Positions 9,541 through 63,687 of a DNA stretch of 64,000 nucleotides are shown here, in pieces. The stretch spans positions 38,917 to 102,916 of the forward strand of contig CAJOLU010000001.1 of NCBI GenBank assembly GCA_905235475.1, written 5' to 3'. The notes under the pieces are model-generated. The model had not been told where the DNA came from. It did no database searches and worked only from the letters and a program-made list of their open reading frames with translations. The first letter of the stretch is position 1. Each line of letters opens with the position of its first letter. Made by a program: the position numbers and the translations under genes. This DNA is from an uncultured Clostridia bacterium. GTDB lineage: Bacteria; Bacillota; Clostridia; Christensenellales; UBA1242.

Positions 9541-11181
9541 ATGAATATTGAAATTTTATATCAAGTTATTTTGATGTTTGCTGGAATTGGTGCTATTATA
9601 TATGGTATAAAAGTAATGAATGGTGGAGTGGAGAGTATTCTTGGCTTCAAGTTCAAAAAAGTTCTAGCAAAACAAAGCAAAAAACATTTCCAAAATTATA
9701 TGATTGGTTCGGGAATGGGCTTTGTTGTTCAAACATCAACAGTTCCAAATATGATGGCAGTAGGGTTAGTTAATATTGGAACAATTAATTTAACACAAGC
9801 CATTGCAATATGTTTGGGTGCAGGTTTTGGAGGAGCACTCGCTCTTGTGCTTTTGATGTTTGAAAGCATTAGTGTGATTAAAATTTTGTGTTTATTTGTG
9901 TTTATTGGTGCTATAATGCTTGTTTTTACAAAATCAAATAAGGGCCAATTAATCAGCAAAATATTCTTAGGTTTTGGACTCTTGTGCTTTGGAATTACTG
10001 TGCTTAGTAATAGCGTTGACCAAATTGTTTCTGAAGTTAATTTAACAAACTTCTTTGCTTCAATCAAAAGCCCAATTTTGTTTTTGCTTATATGTTTTGC
10101 TTTAACAGTTTTGATGCAAAGTGGTTATCCAGTGTTCGTGATTTTAATATCTCTTGTATCTCTTGGCTTAATTGATTTTGAAACCGCTTGTTTTGGAATT
10201 TTGGGCGTCAATGTTGGGTCGGCTTGTGTTACATCACTCCTTTTGGCTGCACTTGATGAGGGAAACAACGGGAAAAGGTTAATTGTGTTTAACATACTTC
10301 AAAAACTTTTGTTTAGCATTATTGTTGGACTTTTGATGCTTATTCCAAATTGGGTTAATTATTTCCACAACACGATTTGTGGTGGAGAGGCAAGTGTATC
10401 TGTGGTTGCATTTAACATTTTGTTGTGTTTTATTCCAATTGTTTTGCTTCCATTCTGCTCACAACTATCAAATATGATGAAATATGTGATAAAAGATAAA
10501 ACAACAGTTAAACAAGGTGAATATTCATCTTTTGAATTAGATGAAAAAACAGCGAATAGTCCTGTTGTTGCCTATGAAAAAATTAAACAAAATATTGAAC
10601 GTATTTATGTGTTGATTTGGGATTTATCCAAAAATAGTCATGATTCATTATTTAATGAAGAAAAATATGTATCTCAAAAAAATAAAGTTAAATCAATTGA
10701 AAAAGCGATAAAATTAACAAATAATAGTTTAATTGCTTTGGCGGGGAAATTGAGTGGCAAAGAGTTAACAAAAATTAATATTTTAATTGATGTTGTTGCA
10801 AATTTGCAAAGATTGTTAAAAGAAAATGCTAATATAATTGAATTTTGTGAGAAAAAATCAACAATTCAAAAAGAAATTAATAAATCACAGTTGAAATATG
10901 TGTCAACATATTATGTTCAAGTTTTGGATTTTGGGGCGCATATTAAAACACTTTTTGATGAGAATTTGCCAGACAAACAAAGAAGTGAAGAATTTAAAAT
11001 AATATTTAAAACGAATGATATTATGATTTTGAATAGAAACAAAGCGAAGAAAAAAATTATTAAAAACGATAATTTTGCTGAGCAAGATAACACTTATTAT
11101 TTTGGACTTTTATATTCTCTTGAAAACATTCAACAAGATTATTTTGATATAACTATAAAACTTGCTTTATTGGAGGATTAA
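9541..11181 (+). CDS. Na+/phosphate cotransporter family protein with a PhoU-like C-terminal domain
   Basis: 546 aa; polytopic N-terminal half with a duplicated Na/Pi-type repeat, and a helical soluble C-terminal half. Confidence 0.6.
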   Translation: MNIEILYQVILMFAGIGAIIYGIKVMNGGVESILGFKFKKVLAKQSKKHFQNYMIGSGMGFVVQTSTVPNMMAVGLVNIGTINLTQAIAICLGAGFGGALALVLLMFESISVIKILCLFVFIGAIMLVFTKSNKGQLISKIFLGFGLLCFGITVLSNSVDQIVSEVNLTNFFASIKSPILFLLICFALTVLMQSGYPVFVILISLVSLGLIDFETACFGILGVNVGSACVTSLLLAALDEGNNGKRLIVFNILQKLLFSIIVGLLMLIPNWVNYFHNTICGGEASVSVVAFNILLCFIPIVLLPFCSQLSNMMKYVIKDKTTVKQGEYSSFELDEKTANSPVVAYEKIKQNIERIYVLIWDLSKNSHDSLFNEEKYVSQKNKVKSIEKAIKLTNNSLIALAGKLSGKELTKINILIDVVANLQRLLKENANIIEFCEKKSTIQKEINKSQLKYVSTYYVQVLDFGAHIKTLFDENLPDKQRSEEFKIIFKTNDIMILNRNKAKKKIIKNDNFAEQDNTYYFGLLYSLENIQQDYFDITIKLALLED

Positions 11182-11185
11182 GATT

Positions 11186-12385
11186 ATGTTTAATAAACAA
11201 ACAATAAAAGATTTAGATGTTAAGGGTAAGAGAGTTTTACTTCGTGTGGACTTTAATGTTCCACTTAATGAAAAAGGAAAAATCACAAGTGATAAAAGAA
11301 TTGTTGCAGAATTGCCAACAATCAAACTTTTAATGAAGAAAGGAGCAAAAATTATTATTTGTTCTCATCTTGGAAGACCGGAAGGGAAGGTGGATTCAAA
11401 GTTTTCACTAAAACCAGTTGCTGAAAAACTTTCAAAACTTCTCAAAAAATCTGTTTTATTTACTGGAAAACTGGTTGAGCCAGAAACTAAAAAAATCATC
11501 AAAGCAATGGAAGAGGGCGACATTTTTATGCTTGAGAATTTGCGTTTTGACCCAGGTGAAGAGGCCAATAGTCCAGCGTTTGCAAAGAAGCTTGCAAGTG
11601 TTGCAGATATTTATTGTGATGATGCTTTTGGAGTTATGCATAGAAGTCATGCAAGTGTTGTTGGTGTTCCAGCACTATTGCCTAGTTGTATTGGACTTTT
11701 GGTTGAAAAAGAAGTTGATAGTTTTAACAAATTAACAACAACACCTAAAAAACCAGTTTTAGCAATTTTGGGTGGGTCAAAAATTAAAGATAAAATTAAT
11801 ATGATTAACAATATTTTCAACTTTGCAGACAAGGTTATTATTGGTGGGGCAATGGCCTACACTTTTTTGGCAGCACAAGGATATGATGTTGGGAAATCTC
11901 GTGTTGAACAAGACAAGATTGCAATAGCAAAAATGCTATTGGATATTGCAGAAGAGAAAAATGTTAAAGTTCTTTTGCCAGTTGACCATGTTGTTGCACA
12001 AGAGTTTACTTTTTTGGCAGATAGCATCATTATTCAAACCAAAGGGTTCGCGTCAAGTGATATTGGAATGGATATTGGTCCTAGAACAATCAAACAATTC
12101 AAGACAGAAATTAATAAAGCAAGAACAATTTTTTGGAATGGACCTATGGGAGTTTTTGAATTTCAGAAGTTTTCAAATGGAACAAGAGCAGTGGCGGAAG
12201 CTGTTGCAAAATCTAAAGCCACAACAATTGTTGGTGGAGGAGATAGTGTTGCTGCAATATCTCAATTTGGGCTTGAATCACAAATTACTCATATTTCAAC
12301 AGGTGGTGGAGCGTCACTAAAATATTTGGAAGGGAATGGGCTAGTTGGATTGAATGTTATAACAGATAAAGTTGAGGTTGAATAA
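11186..12385 (+). CDS. pgk: Phosphoglycerate kinase
   Basis: RVDFNVP, SHLGRP and GGGDS motifs. ATG behind a GGAGGA RBS. Confidence 0.9.
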   Translation: MFNKQTIKDLDVKGKRVLLRVDFNVPLNEKGKITSDKRIVAELPTIKLLMKKGAKIIICSHLGRPEGKVDSKFSLKPVAEKLSKLLKKSVLFTGKLVEPETKKIIKAMEEGDIFMLENLRFDPGEEANSPAFAKKLASVADIYCDDAFGVMHRSHASVVGVPALLPSCIGLLVEKEVDSFNKLTTTPKKPVLAILGGSKIKDKINMINNIFNFADKVIIGGAMAYTFLAAQGYDVGKSRVEQDKIAIAKMLLDIAEEKNVKVLLPVDHVVAQEFTFLADSIIIQTKGFASSDIGMDIGPRTIKQFKTEINKARTIFWNGPMGVFEFQKFSNGTRAVAEAVAKSKATTIVGGGDSVAAISQFGLESQITHISTGGGASLKYLEGNGLVGLNVITDKVEVE

Positions 12386-27889: not shown

Positions 27890-29218
27890 ATGACACGAAC
27901 TGGCAAAATTACAACCATTTTTTTGGCAATAACAATTGCTTTGTTGGTTGCGTTGATGGCAACTTATATTGCAATCACAAACAACAAAATTGATAATTAT
28001 AAAGAGCAACTTAATAACACATATCAAAGTAATGTTTATAGCCTTGGTGATGAGATGGACAATATTGAAGTAACACTTTCAAAAATAAATGTGTCTAACT
28101 CAAAAACGGAGCAAGAAAAATATTTAACTGAATTAGTTTCTCTTTGCAAAATGGCACAAAATAGTTTATCTTCACTGCCAATTGAGCATAACTTAATCAC
28201 AAACACATATAAATTTGTAAATCAACTTAGTGGATATGCTTATGCTCTTAACGAGAATATGAGCAAAGGGGGAAGTCTTTCCACTCAAGATAAACAACAA
28301 CTACAAGATTTACACGCAAGTTCACAAGAAATAAAAAATGAAATTAATAATTTGATTGTGGAAATGAGTTTAGACTATTCCATTGTGGATAACATTTCTC
28401 CAAACGCACAAGCAAATGGATTTAGTCAAAACTTTTCTGGCATTTTTGATGAAACAATAAAGTATCCATCACTTATTTATGATGGACCATTTAGCGATGC
28501 CATACAAAACAAAGAAGTGAAAGGTCTTATGCCAAAAGTATTCACACAAACAGAGGCAGAAGACAAGGTTAAAAAGTTGTTTGGTGAGTTTGAAGTGACT
28601 TTTGATGATGAAACCAACTCAAAAGATTTTGAAACATATAACTTTTCTCTAAAAAAAGATAGCGTTAGTGGATATGTTCAAATAACTAAAAAAGGTGGTT
28701 TTGTTTTAAGTTACAACATAGAAAATAATGGCACAAAGGTTACAAAAAGCATTATTGAGTGCGAATTTATTGCACAAGAGTTTGCTAAAAAAATGGGTAT
28801 TGAAAACGCAGAAATTGTTTGGAGCCAAGATGCCAATAGTTGTGTTTATTGCAACATCTGTTATGTTCAACAAGGAATTATCATTTATCCAGATATGGTT
28901 AAAGTGAAAGTTTGCAGACAAACTGGAGATGTTATTGGCTTTGAGGCACAATCTTGGGCATATAACCACACAGAACGTAAGATAGAAAGCCCACAACTAT
29001 CACAAGAACAAGCGAGAGCAAAACTTAACGCAAATATGGAAGAAATTAGTGCAAGATTGTGCGTTATTCCAACTGAATACAGCGGAGAAAAACTTGCTTG
29101 GGAGTTTAAGTGCTATTGTGATGGCGCTATATATTATGTTTATATTAATGCAAACACGGGCGAAGAACTTGATGTGCAAAAAGTTATTCACACGGAGAAT
29201 GGAAATCTTTTAATGTGA
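27890..29218 (+). CDS. ypeB: Germination protein YpeB
   Basis: 442 aa with an N-terminal TM and C-terminal PepSY-like repeats, immediately downstream of sleB as in the canonical sleB-ypeB operon. Confidence 0.75.
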   Translation: MTRTGKITTIFLAITIALLVALMATYIAITNNKIDNYKEQLNNTYQSNVYSLGDEMDNIEVTLSKINVSNSKTEQEKYLTELVSLCKMAQNSLSSLPIEHNLITNTYKFVNQLSGYAYALNENMSKGGSLSTQDKQQLQDLHASSQEIKNEINNLIVEMSLDYSIVDNISPNAQANGFSQNFSGIFDETIKYPSLIYDGPFSDAIQNKEVKGLMPKVFTQTEAEDKVKKLFGEFEVTFDDETNSKDFETYNFSLKKDSVSGYVQITKKGGFVLSYNIENNGTKVTKSIIECEFIAQEFAKKMGIENAEIVWSQDANSCVYCNICYVQQGIIIYPDMVKVKVCRQTGDVIGFEAQSWAYNHTERKIESPQLSQEQARAKLNANMEEISARLCVIPTEYSGEKLAWEFKCYCDGAIYYVYINANTGEELDVQKVIHTENGNLLM

Positions 29219-49068: not shown

Positions 49069-49692
49069 ATGATATCAAAAACATTTACAAATGAGCAGGC
49101 AAACGATCACCTTGCATATGCGCTCACTTGTGGATATGCTTTTGAAAAGTTTATATATGGAAAAGGTGTTTATGGGAACCGAGTTTCATTAATGAGAGAC
49201 AAAAGAGCGGCATATTTGTTTGGGGGAGAGAATGCGTTTAAATTTAGTTCTTTTCATATAATTGAAGGAATTAAGGCTTTGGAAATTCCACAAACAATTT
49301 TGATGACAAGGCAAAAGCTTGAAGAATTTTATACTAAAAAAGAAGATATGTTAGACTTTTTAGAGAACTACAAGTCGGAATTTATTTCCGTTGAAGATAT
49401 GGAAAAAGTTGTGGATAATTGGTATGAAAATGTGAGCAAAAAACTTTTGGTTAGCAAAGTGACAGACTTTGCAAGGCTTAACAATTTCTTAATTTCAAGT
49501 ATTATTTTATATCTTCCAATTAGTGCACAAATTGATATTGCCGAATTTAGGAAAAAACAAATATTAATTTTGTTAACGCAATCAATAATAACGGAAGATT
49601 TTGCAAGAAAACAAATTGAACTTATGCCAACATCACAAGACAAACTAATTTTGTTAAAACAAAAAATATTAATGCAAAAAAATAGCAAATAA
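49069..49692 (+). CDS. Hypothetical helical protein
   Basis: 207 aa, RBS AGAGGTG, 13 nt after the HicB-like gene, terminator at ~49694..49720. No family recognised. Confidence 0.45.
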   Translation: MISKTFTNEQANDHLAYALTCGYAFEKFIYGKGVYGNRVSLMRDKRAAYLFGGENAFKFSSFHIIEGIKALEIPQTILMTRQKLEEFYTKKEDMLDFLENYKSEFISVEDMEKVVDNWYENVSKKLLVSKVTDFARLNNFLISSIILYLPISAQIDIAEFRKKQILILLTQSIITEDFARKQIELMPTSQDKLILLKQKILMQKNSK

Positions 49693-51155: not shown

Positions 51156-52091
51156 TTGATGATTTTAAATGAGCACTACACCGAAGTTGATGGCGCTTTG
51201 ATGCCGCAAGAGTTCTATCAAACATTGAAGAAATTTCCAAAGACTGCTGTAACTTTCTTTTCAAAAAAACTTCTAAAAATTTTTGTAAAAAAATATGAAT
51301 GTGAAAAAATTGCAGAGCTTGAAAATGAAACCATGGCTTTCCCAATTTACAAAACAAAAGTGAAAAACTGCAATCTTATTGTTTATCAATCTCCTGTTGG
51401 TGCTCCCGCTGCTGCAAGTTTGATGGAAGATGTGATAGCGCTTGGGGCAAGGCATATTTTGGCTGTTGGTTGTTGTGGTTGTTTGGATGAAAACATTGAT
51501 GCAACCGACCTCATTGTTCCAAATGTGGCAATTCGCGATGAGGGGCTTTCATATCACTATTTAAAAACTCAAGACGAAATTGTTTTAAATAAAAAAATGG
51601 TTGACCTTGTGGTGGAATCGTTGAAAAAACAAAAACAACACTATGTTGTTGGAAAAACTTGGACAAATGATGGACTATATCGTGAAACACAAGAGAAGAT
51701 TGCCAAGAGGAAAAAACAGGGAGCAATTGTTGTTGAAATGGAAACTTCGGCTTTAGCATCTGTTGCTGAATTTAGGAAGGTTCATTTTGCTCAAATCTTG
51801 TATGGAGCAGACAGCCTTGCAAATGGTGGCTATGACAAAAGAACTTTTAGGGGAGAAAAAGTTCCAAAACGTGTTGAGGGAATTGTTGATGTGGCTCTTG
51901 TGTGTGGTGCGCATATTGATAGGTGCATGAGCAAGCAAGAAGATAATCAAGATGATGACCCTAAGCCTCCAAAGTTTTTTAAACTTTTGTGGATTCTTAA
52001 CAAAGAAATAAAAAGAGAGCTAAATGCAAGCAGAGAAAGGCGAGAGAGGCGAAAACAAAAAAGGCTTGCTCAAAAACAAAAGGAAAAATAA
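51156..52091 (+). CDS. Nucleoside phosphorylase (PNP_UDP_1 family) with an Arg/Lys-rich C-terminal tail
   Basis: GVGAP-type loop (SPVGAPAAA), VVEMETSAL motif, and a ~60-aa charged tail. Confidence 0.6.
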   Translation: MMILNEHYTEVDGALMPQEFYQTLKKFPKTAVTFFSKKLLKIFVKKYECEKIAELENETMAFPIYKTKVKNCNLIVYQSPVGAPAAASLMEDVIALGARHILAVGCCGCLDENIDATDLIVPNVAIRDEGLSYHYLKTQDEIVLNKKMVDLVVESLKKQKQHYVVGKTWTNDGLYRETQEKIAKRKKQGAIVVEMETSALASVAEFRKVHFAQILYGADSLANGGYDKRTFRGEKVPKRVEGIVDVALVCGAHIDRCMSKQEDNQDDDPKPPKFFKLLWILNKEIKRELNASRERRERRKQKRLAQKQKEK

Positions 52092-52114
52092 GAGTTAGAA
52101 AGTTGTTTTGAACG

Positions 52115-52321
52115 ATGGAGAAATTGATTGGACGATGTGAATACTGTATTTTTATAAAACAAATTTGTCTATCTCTAATTGTTTTGGTGTTTGATGTATT
52201 TAATCTAAAATGGGTTGTTGGTGGAATTAATATTCATATTTTAACATTTATTTGTATTATTTTTTATGTGGCTGTTGTTATGCTTTCCAGAAAGAAAGAC
52301 GACAAAAAGAAGAAATTATAA
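52115..52321 (+). CDS. Small hypothetical membrane protein
   Basis: 68-aa ORF with two hydrophobic segments and a KKDDKKKKL tail. No clear RBS. Confidence 0.3.
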   Translation: MEKLIGRCEYCIFIKQICLSLIVLVFDVFNLKWVVGGINIHILTFICIIFYVAVVMLSRKKDDKKKKL

Positions 52322-52425
52322 GTTCACAAATAGGTCTTGGCCATACATTGTTTTTGGGTGGTGTTATTTCAGCTAGTTATTTTGTGTGCATGTTTTTGTT
52401 CTAAAAATGTTGAAAAAATGAAAAT

Positions 52426-52586
52426 TTTGCCACATAGCCTGTGGATAACTTGATAAAAATGTGGATAAGTCCCACATTTTTTGTTTATTTATTCTCGTTT
52501 TTGCATAAATATAACATAATTTTATAAAAATTCTACAAAATTTATAAATATTCAATGTGGATAAGTTGATGGAAAATTGTGGAAAA
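52426..52586 (+). promoter_or_regulatory. DnaA-box cluster flanking an AT-rich spacer
   Basis: Perfect TGTGGATAA (reverse complement of TTATCCACA) at 52440-52448, 52460-52468 and 52556-52564; TGTGGAAAA at 52578-52586; a weaker opposite-orientation TTTGCCACA at 52426-52434. Confidence 0.7.
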
Positions 52587-52682
52587 GTGCGATTTTTCGG
52601 GTGTGCTGTTTGTATGTTCTAAATGTATATTGCATAATTATAAATGAATAAAAAAATATATGAAAAACCACACAATTTTTGT

Positions 52683-52711
52683 TTGACTTTTTTGAAATTT
52701 CATATTATAAT
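52683..52711 (+). promoter_or_regulatory. Consensus-like sigma-A promoter (distal, upstream of the str operon)
   Basis: TTGACT, 17 nt, TATAAT. Confidence 0.5.
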
Positions 52712-52903
52712 TTTTGCCCAATTTATTGTGGCTTCGTTTTGATGAAAGTGTGGTTGAAATGAAAACCCCATTTTATTAAAAACCTAAATTAAGAATTTCA
52801 AGGTTGAATTGAATTTTAACATTTTTTAAGACACTGGGGATTAGTTAATATTATAAATATTATAAAAACTCTAATAAAAATAAACTTTTTTGCAATAAAA
52901 TTG

Positions 52904-52932
52904 TTGACAATAGCCGTTTTTTTTGATACAAT
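52904..52932 (+). promoter_or_regulatory. Sigma-A promoter of the str operon (proximal)
   Basis: TTGACA, 17 nt, TACAAT, leaving a ~200-nt leader before rpsL. Confidence 0.55.
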
Positions 52933-53133
52933 CTCCTTACTACAATTTGAATTTGTAGCCATTTTATTTTAAATCGACGATTTAGAATAAGCCCATTTTG
53001 GTTTGCTTTAAAGTGTGTGTAACAAACCAAAGTGGAAGGCTAAATATAAAAACTAGTTTTGTTAAATATTTGGCAAGTGGAATTTTTATAGGGTTGAACA
53101 AAAATTCCAATCAAATTTGTATAGGAGGATAAA

Positions 53134-53511
53134 ATGCCAACAATCAATCAATTGATAAAACATGGTCGTAAGGACAAAGTGAAGAAAACAAAGTCACCAC
53201 TCCTTAATGGTTGTCCACAAAAACGTGGAGTTTGTTTTGTTGTAACAACAACCACACCTAAAAAGCCTAACTCAGCTTTGCGTAAGATTGCCAAAGTTAG
53301 ACTATCAAATGGACAAGAAAGCACTATGTATATCCCTGGAATTGGTCACAACCTTCAAGAACACTCTGTTGTTTTGGTTCGTGGTGGTCGTGTTCCTGAC
53401 CTAATCGGTGTGCGTTATCATGTTGTCCGTGGTGTGCTCGACACAGCCGGAGTTGCAAAACGTAATCAGGGTAGAAGTAAATACGGCGCTAAGAAAGAAA
53501 AGAAAGCGTAA
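53134..53511 (+). CDS. rpsL: 30S ribosomal protein S12
   Basis: [10 protein letters not shown]; the [10 protein letters not shown] motif. Confidence 0.95.
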
Positions 53512-57450: not shown

Positions 57451-57496
57451 TTTTTGAAAAATATTGCTTATTTTATTTTTTAATTTTCAAAATTTA

Positions 57497-57505
57497 TGTT
57501 ATACT
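57497..57505 (+). promoter_or_regulatory. Extended -10 element placed for a leaderless transcript of the lipoprotein gene
   Basis: TGtTATACT ends 6 nt before the ATG at 57512, with no SD. Confidence 0.4.
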
Positions 57506-57511
57506 AAAAAT

Positions 57512-59986
57512 ATGGAAAAAAGTGTATTTAAGAAAAGCCTATTAAATATTTTAGGTCTATGTGCGGTGGCACTATGTTCAATGTTGTTATTTTCAGCGTG
57601 TATTTTCACGCTAGACACCCCAAAAGTAACACTTAAAGGGGGAGTGTTGAGTTGGGAAGAAGTTGCTTCGGCAAGTGGTTATAATTTGTCTATTGAAAAG
57701 GAAGGCGAAGAGGCAAGGATTATTCCAATAAAAGGGACTTCCGTCAATATTTCAGGTTATATTGATGTTGGAAAATATAAAATTAAGGTTCAAGCCACAA
57801 CAAACTCAATTATTAGAAACAATTCTGAATATTCAACAGCAAAAACAATTGTGTCTGATGGAAATATTGGGGCGCCAGATAACTTTAAATTAAACATAAA
57901 ATCTAATCAAGTTGTTGTTAGTTTCCAAAACACTTTGTTTGCAGATAGTTACACAATAAAAATTGTGGACCCAGGAGATGTTGAATTAGACCCAGTTATT
58001 GTTGCAAGTGATGCTTTGGTGGAAACCTATAATATAGACATAACAAAATATTTAAATGATGCTGGAGATTATAAGATTTCTGTTAGAGCAAATAAAGTAA
58101 ATGATGACGAAAGCATTTCAAGTTCAGCATACACAGATGAAAAGACATACACAAAAACAATAGCTCTTTTTGCTCCAAGTGTTGAAAGAGAAATTGATGG
58201 AGATGGGGTCTATGCAGAAACAATAGAAAGTGAAACAATCAGGTATAATGATAATATTCACTATGTTGGCGACAATTTAGTTATAACTCTTAGTGAAGTT
58301 GGAAATGCAAGCAAGTATATTGTTAGTTTGTATGGTTCAGACCAAGTTTTTGAAAGTAACAGCAATGTTGTAACTATTCCTAAATCTAGTTTGCCAAAAA
58401 TCACAACAGGTGAAACTGATAAAACTGCAATACAAATTATTCACGCACAAGTTAAATCAAATAGTTTATATTATAATTCATCTGAATATTCTGACGGATA
58501 CATTTTCTTTGGCGTTGATGTTAACAAAGAGAATTTGGGAGAACTAAAAATTAGTAACCCATATTCAAATTTTGTTGGAGATGAAGAGTTTGACTTTTGT
58601 GTGGATAGCCAAAGCGAACTAAACACATTGGCTTATTTCACAATCGCAAACAGAATTTCAAAAGTGCAATTTTATCAATCTTATTACACTCAAGGAGATT
58701 GGGAGCATCCAACAACTTTGTTTATGTATCAAGACTATATGTCTATTGCCACAGAATCATATTATGAAACTAAAAATGTAAGTTCTTCAACATCAGAAGA
58801 TTCAACTGGAAGGCTTGTGTTATATGTTGACAACAGAGTAACAGGTGCTCCAACAGAAACTGCAACAGTTGGCAAAAATGGTTATAACTTAAACAAAACT
58901 CAAATTGAATTTAATGAAATGTTAAATTATTCTAATTTGCCAGCAGATGACGCAAACCGTTACACAACTAATGAAGATGAAATAACAAACGAAACAAAAC
59001 TTCCGTTGCCAATCTTAAAGCAATTAGATGATAACAAAACAGTCAATGTTTACACAAGTGACCAATTATATTTGGCAGTTCAAGCAGGGTATTACCCAAT
59101 ATTTGTGGGAGAAAGCCAAGCAAAGGAAATTTGGAATAAAGCCATTGATGTTTTGGTTGGAACAGAAAGCACTTTGGGTATTATTGATGGAACAATGACT
59201 GATGTTCAAAAAGCACTAGCAATTTTTGATTGGGTGTGCTATAACAACAACTATGACTATAATTTATCATCTCGTTCTAATGAGGATTTGGTTCAAAGAT
59301 TTAGGGGCTTCTATCTTGAAGGAATCTTCCTAGATGATGGTCAGGCTGTTTGTGATGGAATTGCAAAAGCATACACACTTCTTTGCAATATGGCGGGAGT
59401 TAATTGCTATAAAGTCAGTGGTGAAGGCATAACAGGCAGTGGAACAGAAGGGCATGCTTGGAACAAGGTTGGAATATATAATGAAGAAACAGAACAATAC
59501 AACTATTATATGGTTGATTGCACTTGGAATGATATTTCACTAACACTTCAAGATAACACAGAATTAGGCTACTTCTTAACACATAAAAACTTTTTAACAA
59601 AAGATGATGGCAGACACATAGAGAAAAATCCAACAAAACTAAACTCACAAAGGGTTTTGAATGATGCTTCATATGATTATTTTGCAAATAAAACAATCAC
59701 ACTTAACGACACAACATATAGTATGTTAATTAAAAATAACACATTCACCGGTGATGCTGGAACATATATGGCCAAACTAAAAACAGATCTTAATGCAGAA
59801 TATGCAAAAAATGGTGGAACAGGTCTAAATTATTTGGAAATAAAAATATTAAATGAATTTTCTGGGAACTTTGAATCTGCTCTTGGTGGTGATTGGTATA
59901 TATTTAGTGCTCCAGTTAGTCAAGAAAACAAAAAAACAAATTATGTTACAACAGGCTACACAACATATTTAGTTTTGCATAAATAA
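57512..59986 (+). CDS. Large lipoprotein with Ig/Fn3-like repeats and a C-terminal transglutaminase-like cysteine protease core
   Basis: Signal peptide with a lipobox (MLLFSAC). Transglutaminase-like triad context: QAVCDGIAKAY ... GHAWNKV ... VDCTWND. Confidence 0.65.
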   Translation: MEKSVFKKSLLNILGLCAVALCSMLLFSACIFTLDTPKVTLKGGVLSWEEVASASGYNLSIEKEGEEARIIPIKGTSVNISGYIDVGKYKIKVQATTNSIIRNNSEYSTAKTIVSDGNIGAPDNFKLNIKSNQVVVSFQNTLFADSYTIKIVDPGDVELDPVIVASDALVETYNIDITKYLNDAGDYKISVRANKVNDDESISSSAYTDEKTYTKTIALFAPSVEREIDGDGVYAETIESETIRYNDNIHYVGDNLVITLSEVGNASKYIVSLYGSDQVFESNSNVVTIPKSSLPKITTGETDKTAIQIIHAQVKSNSLYYNSSEYSDGYIFFGVDVNKENLGELKISNPYSNFVGDEEFDFCVDSQSELNTLAYFTIANRISKVQFYQSYYTQGDWEHPTTLFMYQDYMSIATESYYETKNVSSSTSEDSTGRLVLYVDNRVTGAPTETATVGKNGYNLNKTQIEFNEMLNYSNLPADDANRYTTNEDEITNETKLPLPILKQLDDNKTVNVYTSDQLYLAVQAGYYPIFVGESQAKEIWNKAIDVLVGTESTLGIIDGTMTDVQKALAIFDWVCYNNNYDYNLSSRSNEDLVQRFRGFYLEGIFLDDGQAVCDGIAKAYTLLCNMAGVNCYKVSGEGITGSGTEGHAWNKVGIYNEETEQYNYYMVDCTWNDISLTLQDNTELGYFLTHKNFLTKDDGRHIEKNPTKLNSQRVLNDASYDYFANKTITLNDTTYSMLIKNNTFTGDAGTYMAKLKTDLNAEYAKNGGTGLNYLEIKILNEFSGNFESALGGDWYIFSAPVSQENKKTNYVTTGYTTYLVLHK

Positions 59987-60519: not shown

Positions 60520-63435
<2,916 letters not shown>

Positions 63436-63571
63436 AAATAGAGCATAAACAAGTTTATAGGCTCTAGCGTCAAGTTAATGTAATAAAAGTTTAAAAAAGT
63501 ATTGACAGATTTCATTTTGTTTGATATATTTACTATGCAGTTGTGAGTGTGTTTACGCGCACTGTACCATT

Positions 63572-63687
63572 TCTGGTGATTATAGCGAAGAGGTCCACCT
63601 GTTCTCATTCCGAACACAGAAGTTAAGCTCTTCAGCGCCGAAGATACTTGCGGGGCAGCCCGCTGGGAGAATAGGTCGTTGCCAGAT
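63572..63687 (+). rRNA. rrf: 5S ribosomal RNA
   Basis: TCTGGTGATTATAGCGAAGAGGTCCACCTGTTCTCATTCCGAACACAGAAGTTAAGC...GGGAGAATAGGTCGTTGCCAGA. Confidence 0.9.

Follow-up and report, generated by a model that had tools for sequence, protein, structure and literature searches.

A conserved, helically phased cluster of predicted DnaA boxes upstream of the str operon in uncultured gut Clostridia

Results

Gene context of the box cluster

The stretch of DNA analysed here (64 kb, referred to below as the window) comes from a low-GC (~33%), spore-forming Firmicute, and nearly all of its genes are on the + strand. Reading rightward, dnaX-ybaB-recR, cca, rmuC, three small genes, a VanW-domain gene and a nucleoside-phosphorylase-like gene (PNP_UDP_1; hereafter PNP-like) precede an intergenic gap of 1042 bp (52092-53133), downstream of which lie rpsL-rpsG-fusA-tuf, a gene for a transglutaminase-like protein and a 23S-5S rRNA pair. 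The first gene of this str operon, rpsL, occupies 53134-53511 on the + strand (TIGR00981, 210 bits). The original prediction put the gap at ~810 bp, a length that is obtained only if an uncalled 68-aa ORF at 52115-52321 is counted as a gene; 1042 bp is the distance between called genes. The DnaA-box cluster described here is located in this gap. On its upstream side, dnaX-ybaB-recR are 8-10 kb away, and the str operon and the rRNA genes follow downstream; genes of these kinds, for replication, ribosomal proteins and rRNA, are generally origin-proximal in B. subtilis and in Firmicutes.

The 23S (60520-63437) and 5S (63572-63687) rRNA genes are not preceded by a 16S gene. The transglutaminase-like protein (57464-59986) is 840 aa long and is encoded after tuf and before the 23S rRNA gene, and relatives keep a counterpart of 744-844 aa.

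DnaA boxes in the intergenic gap

The sequence TGTGGATAA, which is the reverse complement of TTATCCACA, occurs in the gap as three perfect DnaA boxes on the - strand: box 1 at 52440-52448, box 2 at 52460-52468, 20 bp from box 1, and box 3 at 52556-52564, the last continued by GTTGA at 52565-52569. Box 4 (52578-52586) reads TGTGGAAAA, or TTTTCCACA on the - strand, and has one mismatch. All four boxes share one orientation, and their start-to-start spacings are 20, 96 and 22 bp; the positions and strand of the boxes, as well as their grouping in pairs 20 and 22 bp apart, were thus recovered as originally predicted. Three perfect boxes and one one-mismatch box within 147 bp of an intergenic gap are what is expected of a DnaA-box cluster outside oriC, and we refer to this arrangement as the module.

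The prediction that chance is an unlikely source of the boxes held as well, since ~2e-6 triplets of perfect boxes within 150 bp are expected by a Poisson estimate and none of 400 first-order Markov simulations of the window placed even two perfect boxes within 150 bp. The same simulations gave 0.90 ± 1.0 perfect boxes per 64 kb, as against the five that are present. Boxes with at most one mismatch number 34 in the whole window, as against an expected 24.4 ± 5.0. The enrichment of boxes is local only. One other perfect box, at 28384, had been reported as the sole one elsewhere in the window, and a second had been overlooked; it lies on the - strand at 49410-49418, inside an ORF (49069-49692). 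This stray box is not conserved, as any perfect boxes of two relatives (L011 and L013) all lie within the module.

Two further details of the predicted layout had to be revised. The 87-bp spacer between boxes 2 and 3 (52469-52555), described as almost pure A/T, is 83% A+T compared with 74% for the whole intergenic gap. In addition, a weaker inverted box, TTTGCCACA (52426-52434), is not conserved in relatives; its CCACA part varies, and only the overlapping motif AAATTTTGC (52421-52429, + strand) is kept. This motif is 10 bp left of box 1 and forms the left edge of the conserved module in the alignments.

Conservation of the module among relatives

Relatives were ordered by using EF-G homologues, around which synteny is kept, as a divergence ladder, and a module-specific pattern scan of metagenomes was added. 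One contig (L001) was identical to the window and hence uninformative. Eight further instances of the module were found, in relatives with an EF-G identity to the window of 97% (L150 and L011), 92% (L013), 91% (L015), 90% (L144) and 86% (L018), in L147, whose rpsL identity is 91.5%, and in L148; wherever EF-G identity was measured, it was at least 86%.

In a nine-way alignment of the module, the columns of boxes 1, 2 and 3 have mean identities of 0.99, 1.00 and 0.93, those of the adjoining GTTGA 1.00 and those of box 4 0.69, as against 0.61 for all non-box columns. Box 2 is perfect in all nine instances and box 1 in eight, the exception being L011 with CGTGGATAA. In most relatives, box 3 and GTTGA together read TGTGGATAAGTTGATAA, which amounts to box 3 plus an overlapping box with two mismatches. 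Box 4 is the weakest and most variable of the four, and it nevertheless has no more than two mismatches in any of the nine instances and is always 19-22 bp from box 3. Conservation of the boxes in related genomes is therefore far above that of the surrounding intergenic DNA, and their helical phasing is kept. The module is real and, as this pattern of conservation indicates, under selection, which on the boxes is purifying.

Relatives whose EF-G identity is 82-83% have no module upstream of rpsL, and neither does a rearranged strain (L017); the module is therefore dispensable at that evolutionary distance. A contig scan for relatives by way of the upstream PNP-like gene gave no result. Close homologues of this gene (81%, 65% and 60% identity) sit in other contexts, which makes the gene variable cargo. 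Its product (51156-52091) has a Lys/Glu-rich C-terminal tail of ~50 residues.

Both flanks of the module differ among the instances. To its left is a PNP-like gene with a small ORF, a Na/Ca exchanger gene, or nothing; to its right is nothing, ~180 bp of unrelated DNA, in L018 a gene for a 286-aa membrane protein, or in L144 one for a GNAT acetyltransferase. The module thus sits in a small region of gene turnover, and its persistence while both flanks change points to the module itself, and not to any single neighbour, as the target of selection. The variable slots are at 51156-52404 in the window, 3519-4520 in L011, 3580-4581 in L013, 3859-4719 in L018 and 4236-4766 in L144.

Spacing and helical phase of the boxes

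The spacer between boxes 2 and 3 falls into discrete length classes. It is exactly 87 bp in five of the nine instances (the window, L011, L150, L015 and L147), which have their boxes at offsets of 0, 20, 116 and 137-138 bp, and exactly 66 bp in three (L013, L144 and L148; offsets 0, 20, 95 and 114 bp). The remaining instance, L018, has a spacer of 84 bp and offsets of 0, 21, 114 and 135 bp, the spacing between its boxes 1 and 2 being 21 bp. Spacer sequence is only partly kept, and spacer length is exact within each class despite this divergence. The step from 87 to 66 bp is 21 bp, or 2.0 helical turns. Expressed in turns, the boxes are at 0, 1.9, 11.05 (9.05 in the 66-bp class) and 13.1, and the fixed spacer length therefore puts all four on about one face of the helix. 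We infer that such quantised phasing is the signature of a protein complex that would bridge the two box pairs.

Two features of the 66-bp spacers (4628-4693 in L013, with equivalents in L144 and L148) are not shared by the 87-bp class: the 10-bp sequence TTTTCGAAAA, which is a perfect palindrome, and the direct repeat GTTTT(A)GAACAAA. A half-site of the palindrome is one mismatch from the Spo0A-box consensus, TGTCGAA.

Promoters, leader and hairpin

The original prediction placed two strong promoters downstream of the boxes. Both sites exist on the + strand, each with 11 of 12 matches: a promoter-like site, P1 (TTGACT-17-TATAAT; 52683-52711), and the str-operon promoter, P2 (TTGACA-17-TACAAT with an upstream TG; 52904-52932). 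Only P2 is conserved. It is present in all relatives as TTGACA-17-TGnTAnAAT, together with a 5' leader hairpin of the str transcript (CTACAA...TTGTAG; 52940-52958, + strand) that is conserved in the alignment, and both are kept even in relatives that have no boxes (L017, L019 and L021). P1 is not positionally conserved and does not align between relatives, and no conserved small gene or RNA was found between P1 and P2, a region that aligns poorly among relatives. The str leader is ~190 nt long, with the hairpin at its start; it has no match to an Rfam family, and rpoB and rpoC are not upstream. A search of 52000-53250 against Rfam at an E-value of at most 1 gave only two chance matches.

The boxes do not have a fixed position relative to P2. 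The distance from box 4 to P2 is ~110 bp in L013, ~320 bp in the window and more than 1 kb at the upper end, and whole genes intervene in L018 and L144. Some strong sigma-A-type rightward promoter is found in eight of the nine instances with its -35 element 97-185 bp downstream of box 3. A search for a sigma-A promoter inside the module gave no positionally conserved candidate. To the right of box 4 is a further conserved block, CTGTTTGTATGTTCTAAATGTATATTGCATAATTATAAA (52606-52644, + strand), in which the invariant TATGTTCTAA is followed by a -10-like TATAAT (TATATT as a variant) and ATGAAT, and which has no good -35 element. This block is confined to the instances with 87- and 84-bp spacers and is absent in L013, L144 and L148.

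Box 2 also forms the 5' arm of a terminator-like hairpin, AAAAATGTGG-ATAAGTC-CCACATTTTT, which is followed by a T run (52455-52481, + strand). The hairpin is specific to a sub-clade. Of the eight instances folded, three (the window, L011 and L150) have a good hairpin, with energies of -9.9 to -14.4 kcal/mol, and the other five (L015, L147, L018, L013 and L144) a weak one or none. In the sub-clade of the window, the hairpin may also terminate transcription of the upstream gene.

Features expected of a replication origin

Between 44 and 60 kb, all 1-kb bins have a positive GC skew (+0.08 to +0.28), and across the window the skew is positive in all 2-kb bins but one, which is near 0 at 32-34 kb over the minus-strand gerA operon. 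The genes flanking the module are all on the + strand. Neither dnaA nor dnaN was found within the 64-kb window; for DnaA, the search comprised Pfam on the large ORFs and a six-frame signature search. A plasmid origin was considered as well and was rejected, as blastn against a plasmid collection gave no match.

DnaA-trios were scanned for on both sides of every box. In the E. coli R1-DUE, the arrangement of the boxes relative to the unwinding element indicates which side of a box should carry trios, and the expected side was deduced from it. Runs of 2-6 trio units occur beside the boxes. CTA (3'-GAT-5') units are missing from the expected side, the runs show no positional conservation, and in AT-rich background three or more units are present in 55% of 60-mers. 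The published search for basal unwinding systems asked for three or more DnaA-trios (3'-NAN-5', with 3'-GAT-5' preferred) no farther than 16 bp from a box and allowed no more than 3 bp between tandem boxes (PMC8287927); the boxes within each pair of the module are 11-13 bp apart.

A generic tandem-box pattern scan of contigs gave at least 120 loci across Bacteria, the matches listed being from outside the window's own genus. One of them (L081) is a true origin region in which the boxes abut the dnaA gene. Another (L132, 1152-1290 of contig CAMUJQ010000003.1, from another uncultured Clostridia MAG) is a similar non-origin cluster. It has the same box design, with offsets of 0, 21 and 117 bp and overlapping weaker boxes, and is located upstream of a VanW-like gene. 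No DnaA signature was found in its 8-kb block.

Discussion

A question raised by these observations is what the module does. We consider it very likely that DnaA binds the module, for which purifying selection on the boxes provides indirect support, and we lean, if only modestly, towards the view that it is a conserved high-affinity DnaA-binding cluster outside oriC with a sink or regulatory role, like the clusters of B. subtilis. The original prediction favoured either a secondary DnaA-binding cluster or control of promoters by DnaA, and the conservation of the boxes and the failure of the origin reading support it in this without distinguishing the two.

The anatomy of the module suggests how a sink or regulatory cluster might work. 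Two head-to-tail box pairs (boxes 1 and 2 separated by 20 bp, boxes 3 and 4 by 19-22 bp) surround an AT-rich spacer of fixed length. Domain IV of DnaA would fill the three perfect boxes, and box 4 and the two-mismatch site that overlaps box 3 in most relatives may be filled cooperatively. The two sub-complexes could then touch across the easily bent spacer, and the locus would hold a small DnaA oligomer. Like the B. subtilis clusters or E. coli datA, it would serve as a sink or regulatory site and leave less DnaA for oriC, possibly with a side effect on the next downstream promoter. DnaA binding, bridging by an oligomer and an effect on initiation are the steps that we infer here.

Several observations sit less comfortably with a sink or regulatory cluster. 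The module has just four or five boxes, and Smith and Grossman noted that the major DnaA-binding regions of B. subtilis have more boxes than the weaker ones. The module is missing at 82-83% EF-G identity and in L017, and the strong promoter at a limited distance from box 3 in most instances fits a transcriptional role too.

The closest known systems are the six DnaA-box clusters outside oriC in B. subtilis, the joint deletion of which leads to early initiation (Okumura et al. 2012, PMC3245932). As in those clusters, the module consists of intergenic consensus boxes at a distance from dnaA and oriC, the host is a spore-forming Firmicute, and in both cases the cluster is beside different genes in different species. 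The B. subtilis clusters stably bind DnaA, sometimes regulate the adjacent gene and jointly restrain initiation, whereas the likeness of the module is at the level of sequence features. Five of the six are proximal to oriC, and the str-operon locus is not among the six sites; nor has the strict phase-locked layout of two pairs, with four to five boxes in 147 bp, been described for them. Okumura et al. could not identify structural features that discriminate active from inactive clusters (PMC3245932). We found no report in the literature of a DnaA-box cluster at the str operon.

An alternative is that the module is a DnaA-dependent transcriptional control element, with DnaA activating or repressing the next rightward promoter, which is mostly that of the str operon; expression of the translation machinery would then be coupled to replication status. 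The boxes are indeed upstream of co-oriented genes and DnaA acts as a transcription factor at the B. subtilis sda, ywlC, yydA and dnaA clusters (PMC3245932). The -35 element found 97-185 bp downstream of box 3 in eight of nine instances would be in keeping with such control, and the -10-like TATAAT that lies ~38 bp downstream of box 4 in the 87/84-bp class, with no good -35, would suit an activator-dependent promoter. However, the upstream region of any co-oriented gene needs a promoter, and a promoter nearby is accordingly weak evidence; promoters of the P1 type cannot be aligned among relatives, conservation is poor between P1 and P2, and instances with a 66-bp spacer lack the block to the right of box 4. 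The str promoter in particular looks less likely to be under direct control, given the retention of P2 and its leader in relatives without boxes and a distance from the boxes that ranges from 110 bp to more than 1 kb, with genes in between in L018 and L144. We regard transcriptional control as the main rival reading, but as rather unlikely to be the main role of the module. A more ambitious proposal has two forms: the module could be a Firmicute counterpart of datA or DARS that alters the nucleotide or oligomeric state of DnaA by means of a bent spacer, or else the complex would gate rightward str transcription and so link the output of the translation machinery to replication status. We consider this decidedly unlikely. 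In the narrower form of a datA-like or DARS-like element, the phased loop would promote ATP hydrolysis or ADP release by DnaA, changing its nucleotide state, and so would do more than titrate it. The layout has some appeal in this respect. Two box groups surround a bendable AT-rich spacer of fixed helical phase, and all boxes point in the same direction, as head-to-tail AAA+ contacts need; in datA, essential boxes likewise flank a site bent by IHF, and the bent segment joins bound DnaA and negatively regulates initiation. On the other side, no bending-protein site was identified in the module, and Firmicutes are not known to have an IHF homologue. Nor does the module resemble datA or DARS in sequence, although such a resemblance would not be expected. 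According to a 2017 review, none of the DnaA-box clusters identified in B. subtilis contributes significantly to the control of initiation, and the regulators of this species act on DnaA oligomerisation and not on its nucleotide state; the review identifies no element of the datA/DARS type for Firmicutes (PMC5295017). A change of nucleotide state is, in our estimation, quite improbable. With its five high-affinity DnaA boxes, datA titrates DnaA (PMC3245932), and it resembles the module as a non-origin cluster of high-affinity boxes, which are predicted in our case; it differs in the number and arrangement of its boxes and in its IHF site, no counterpart of which was identified here. We would rank datA as a looser functional analogue than the B. 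subtilis clusters.

The sequence of box pair, AT-rich region and box pair also invites the idea of a displaced, auxiliary or vestigial origin element, in which the spacer (83% A+T) would be the unwinding region. The layout recalls B. subtilis incC, where distal and proximal box subregions cooperate through a phase-dependent DNA loop (Richardson et al. 2019, PMC6669920). The module shares with incC and the basal unwinding system (PMC6669920; Pelliciari et al. 2021, PMC8287927) two subregions of consensus boxes in one orientation and, by our reading of the phasing, a phase-dependent cooperation between them. It differs in having no DnaA-trios, no skew or strand switch and no nearby dnaA or dnaN, and its paired boxes are 11-13 bp apart and not adjacent, beyond the 3 bp allowed in the published search (PMC8287927). 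The trio runs do not rise above the AT-rich background, the skew is positive on both sides without a change of sign, the flanking genes are all on one strand, and the spacer is conserved in length rather than in sequence. The original prediction had noted the co-oriented genes and the missing dnaA, both of which hold across the window, and had rated a displaced origin unlikely; the skew, the gene orientation and the trio search all bear this out. The origin reading is largely refuted, and an origin element of any of these kinds is very improbable; the resemblance to incC would lie in the assembly of a DnaA complex and not in origin function. The probability that the module is a chance or structural feature, namely an intrinsic terminator of the upstream gene with incidental box-like sequence, is close to negligible. 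The hairpin whose 5' arm is box 2 does have a T run behind it, and good folding energies in the window, L011 and L150, but box 2 is perfect in all nine instances, five of which have a weak hairpin or none. A terminator also leaves boxes 1, 3 and 4 and the quantised spacing unexplained, and the expectation of ~2e-6 speaks against coincidence. The conservation pattern thus rules out an intrinsic terminator as the sole explanation, and it can account for box 2 at most.

To our knowledge, only a handful of model bacteria have had their secondary DnaA-binding clusters characterised. The lineage studied here belongs to the uncultured gut Clostridia, and the module leaves the current picture of replication control unchanged. 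The class of cluster is already known, and the module is of note mainly for its clean, phase-quantised architecture: it is compact and has an unusually clean pattern of conservation, with three invariant boxes and one tolerant box. The near-quantised spacer, which changes by two whole turns, provides a simple design rule, open to test, for how DnaA might assemble cooperatively outside the origin.

In one of the relatives that have no boxes, L021 (82% EF-G identity), a reverse transcriptase gene and then a bAvd gene are found just downstream of tuf, at 9865-11589, a pair that looks like a diversity-generating retroelement.
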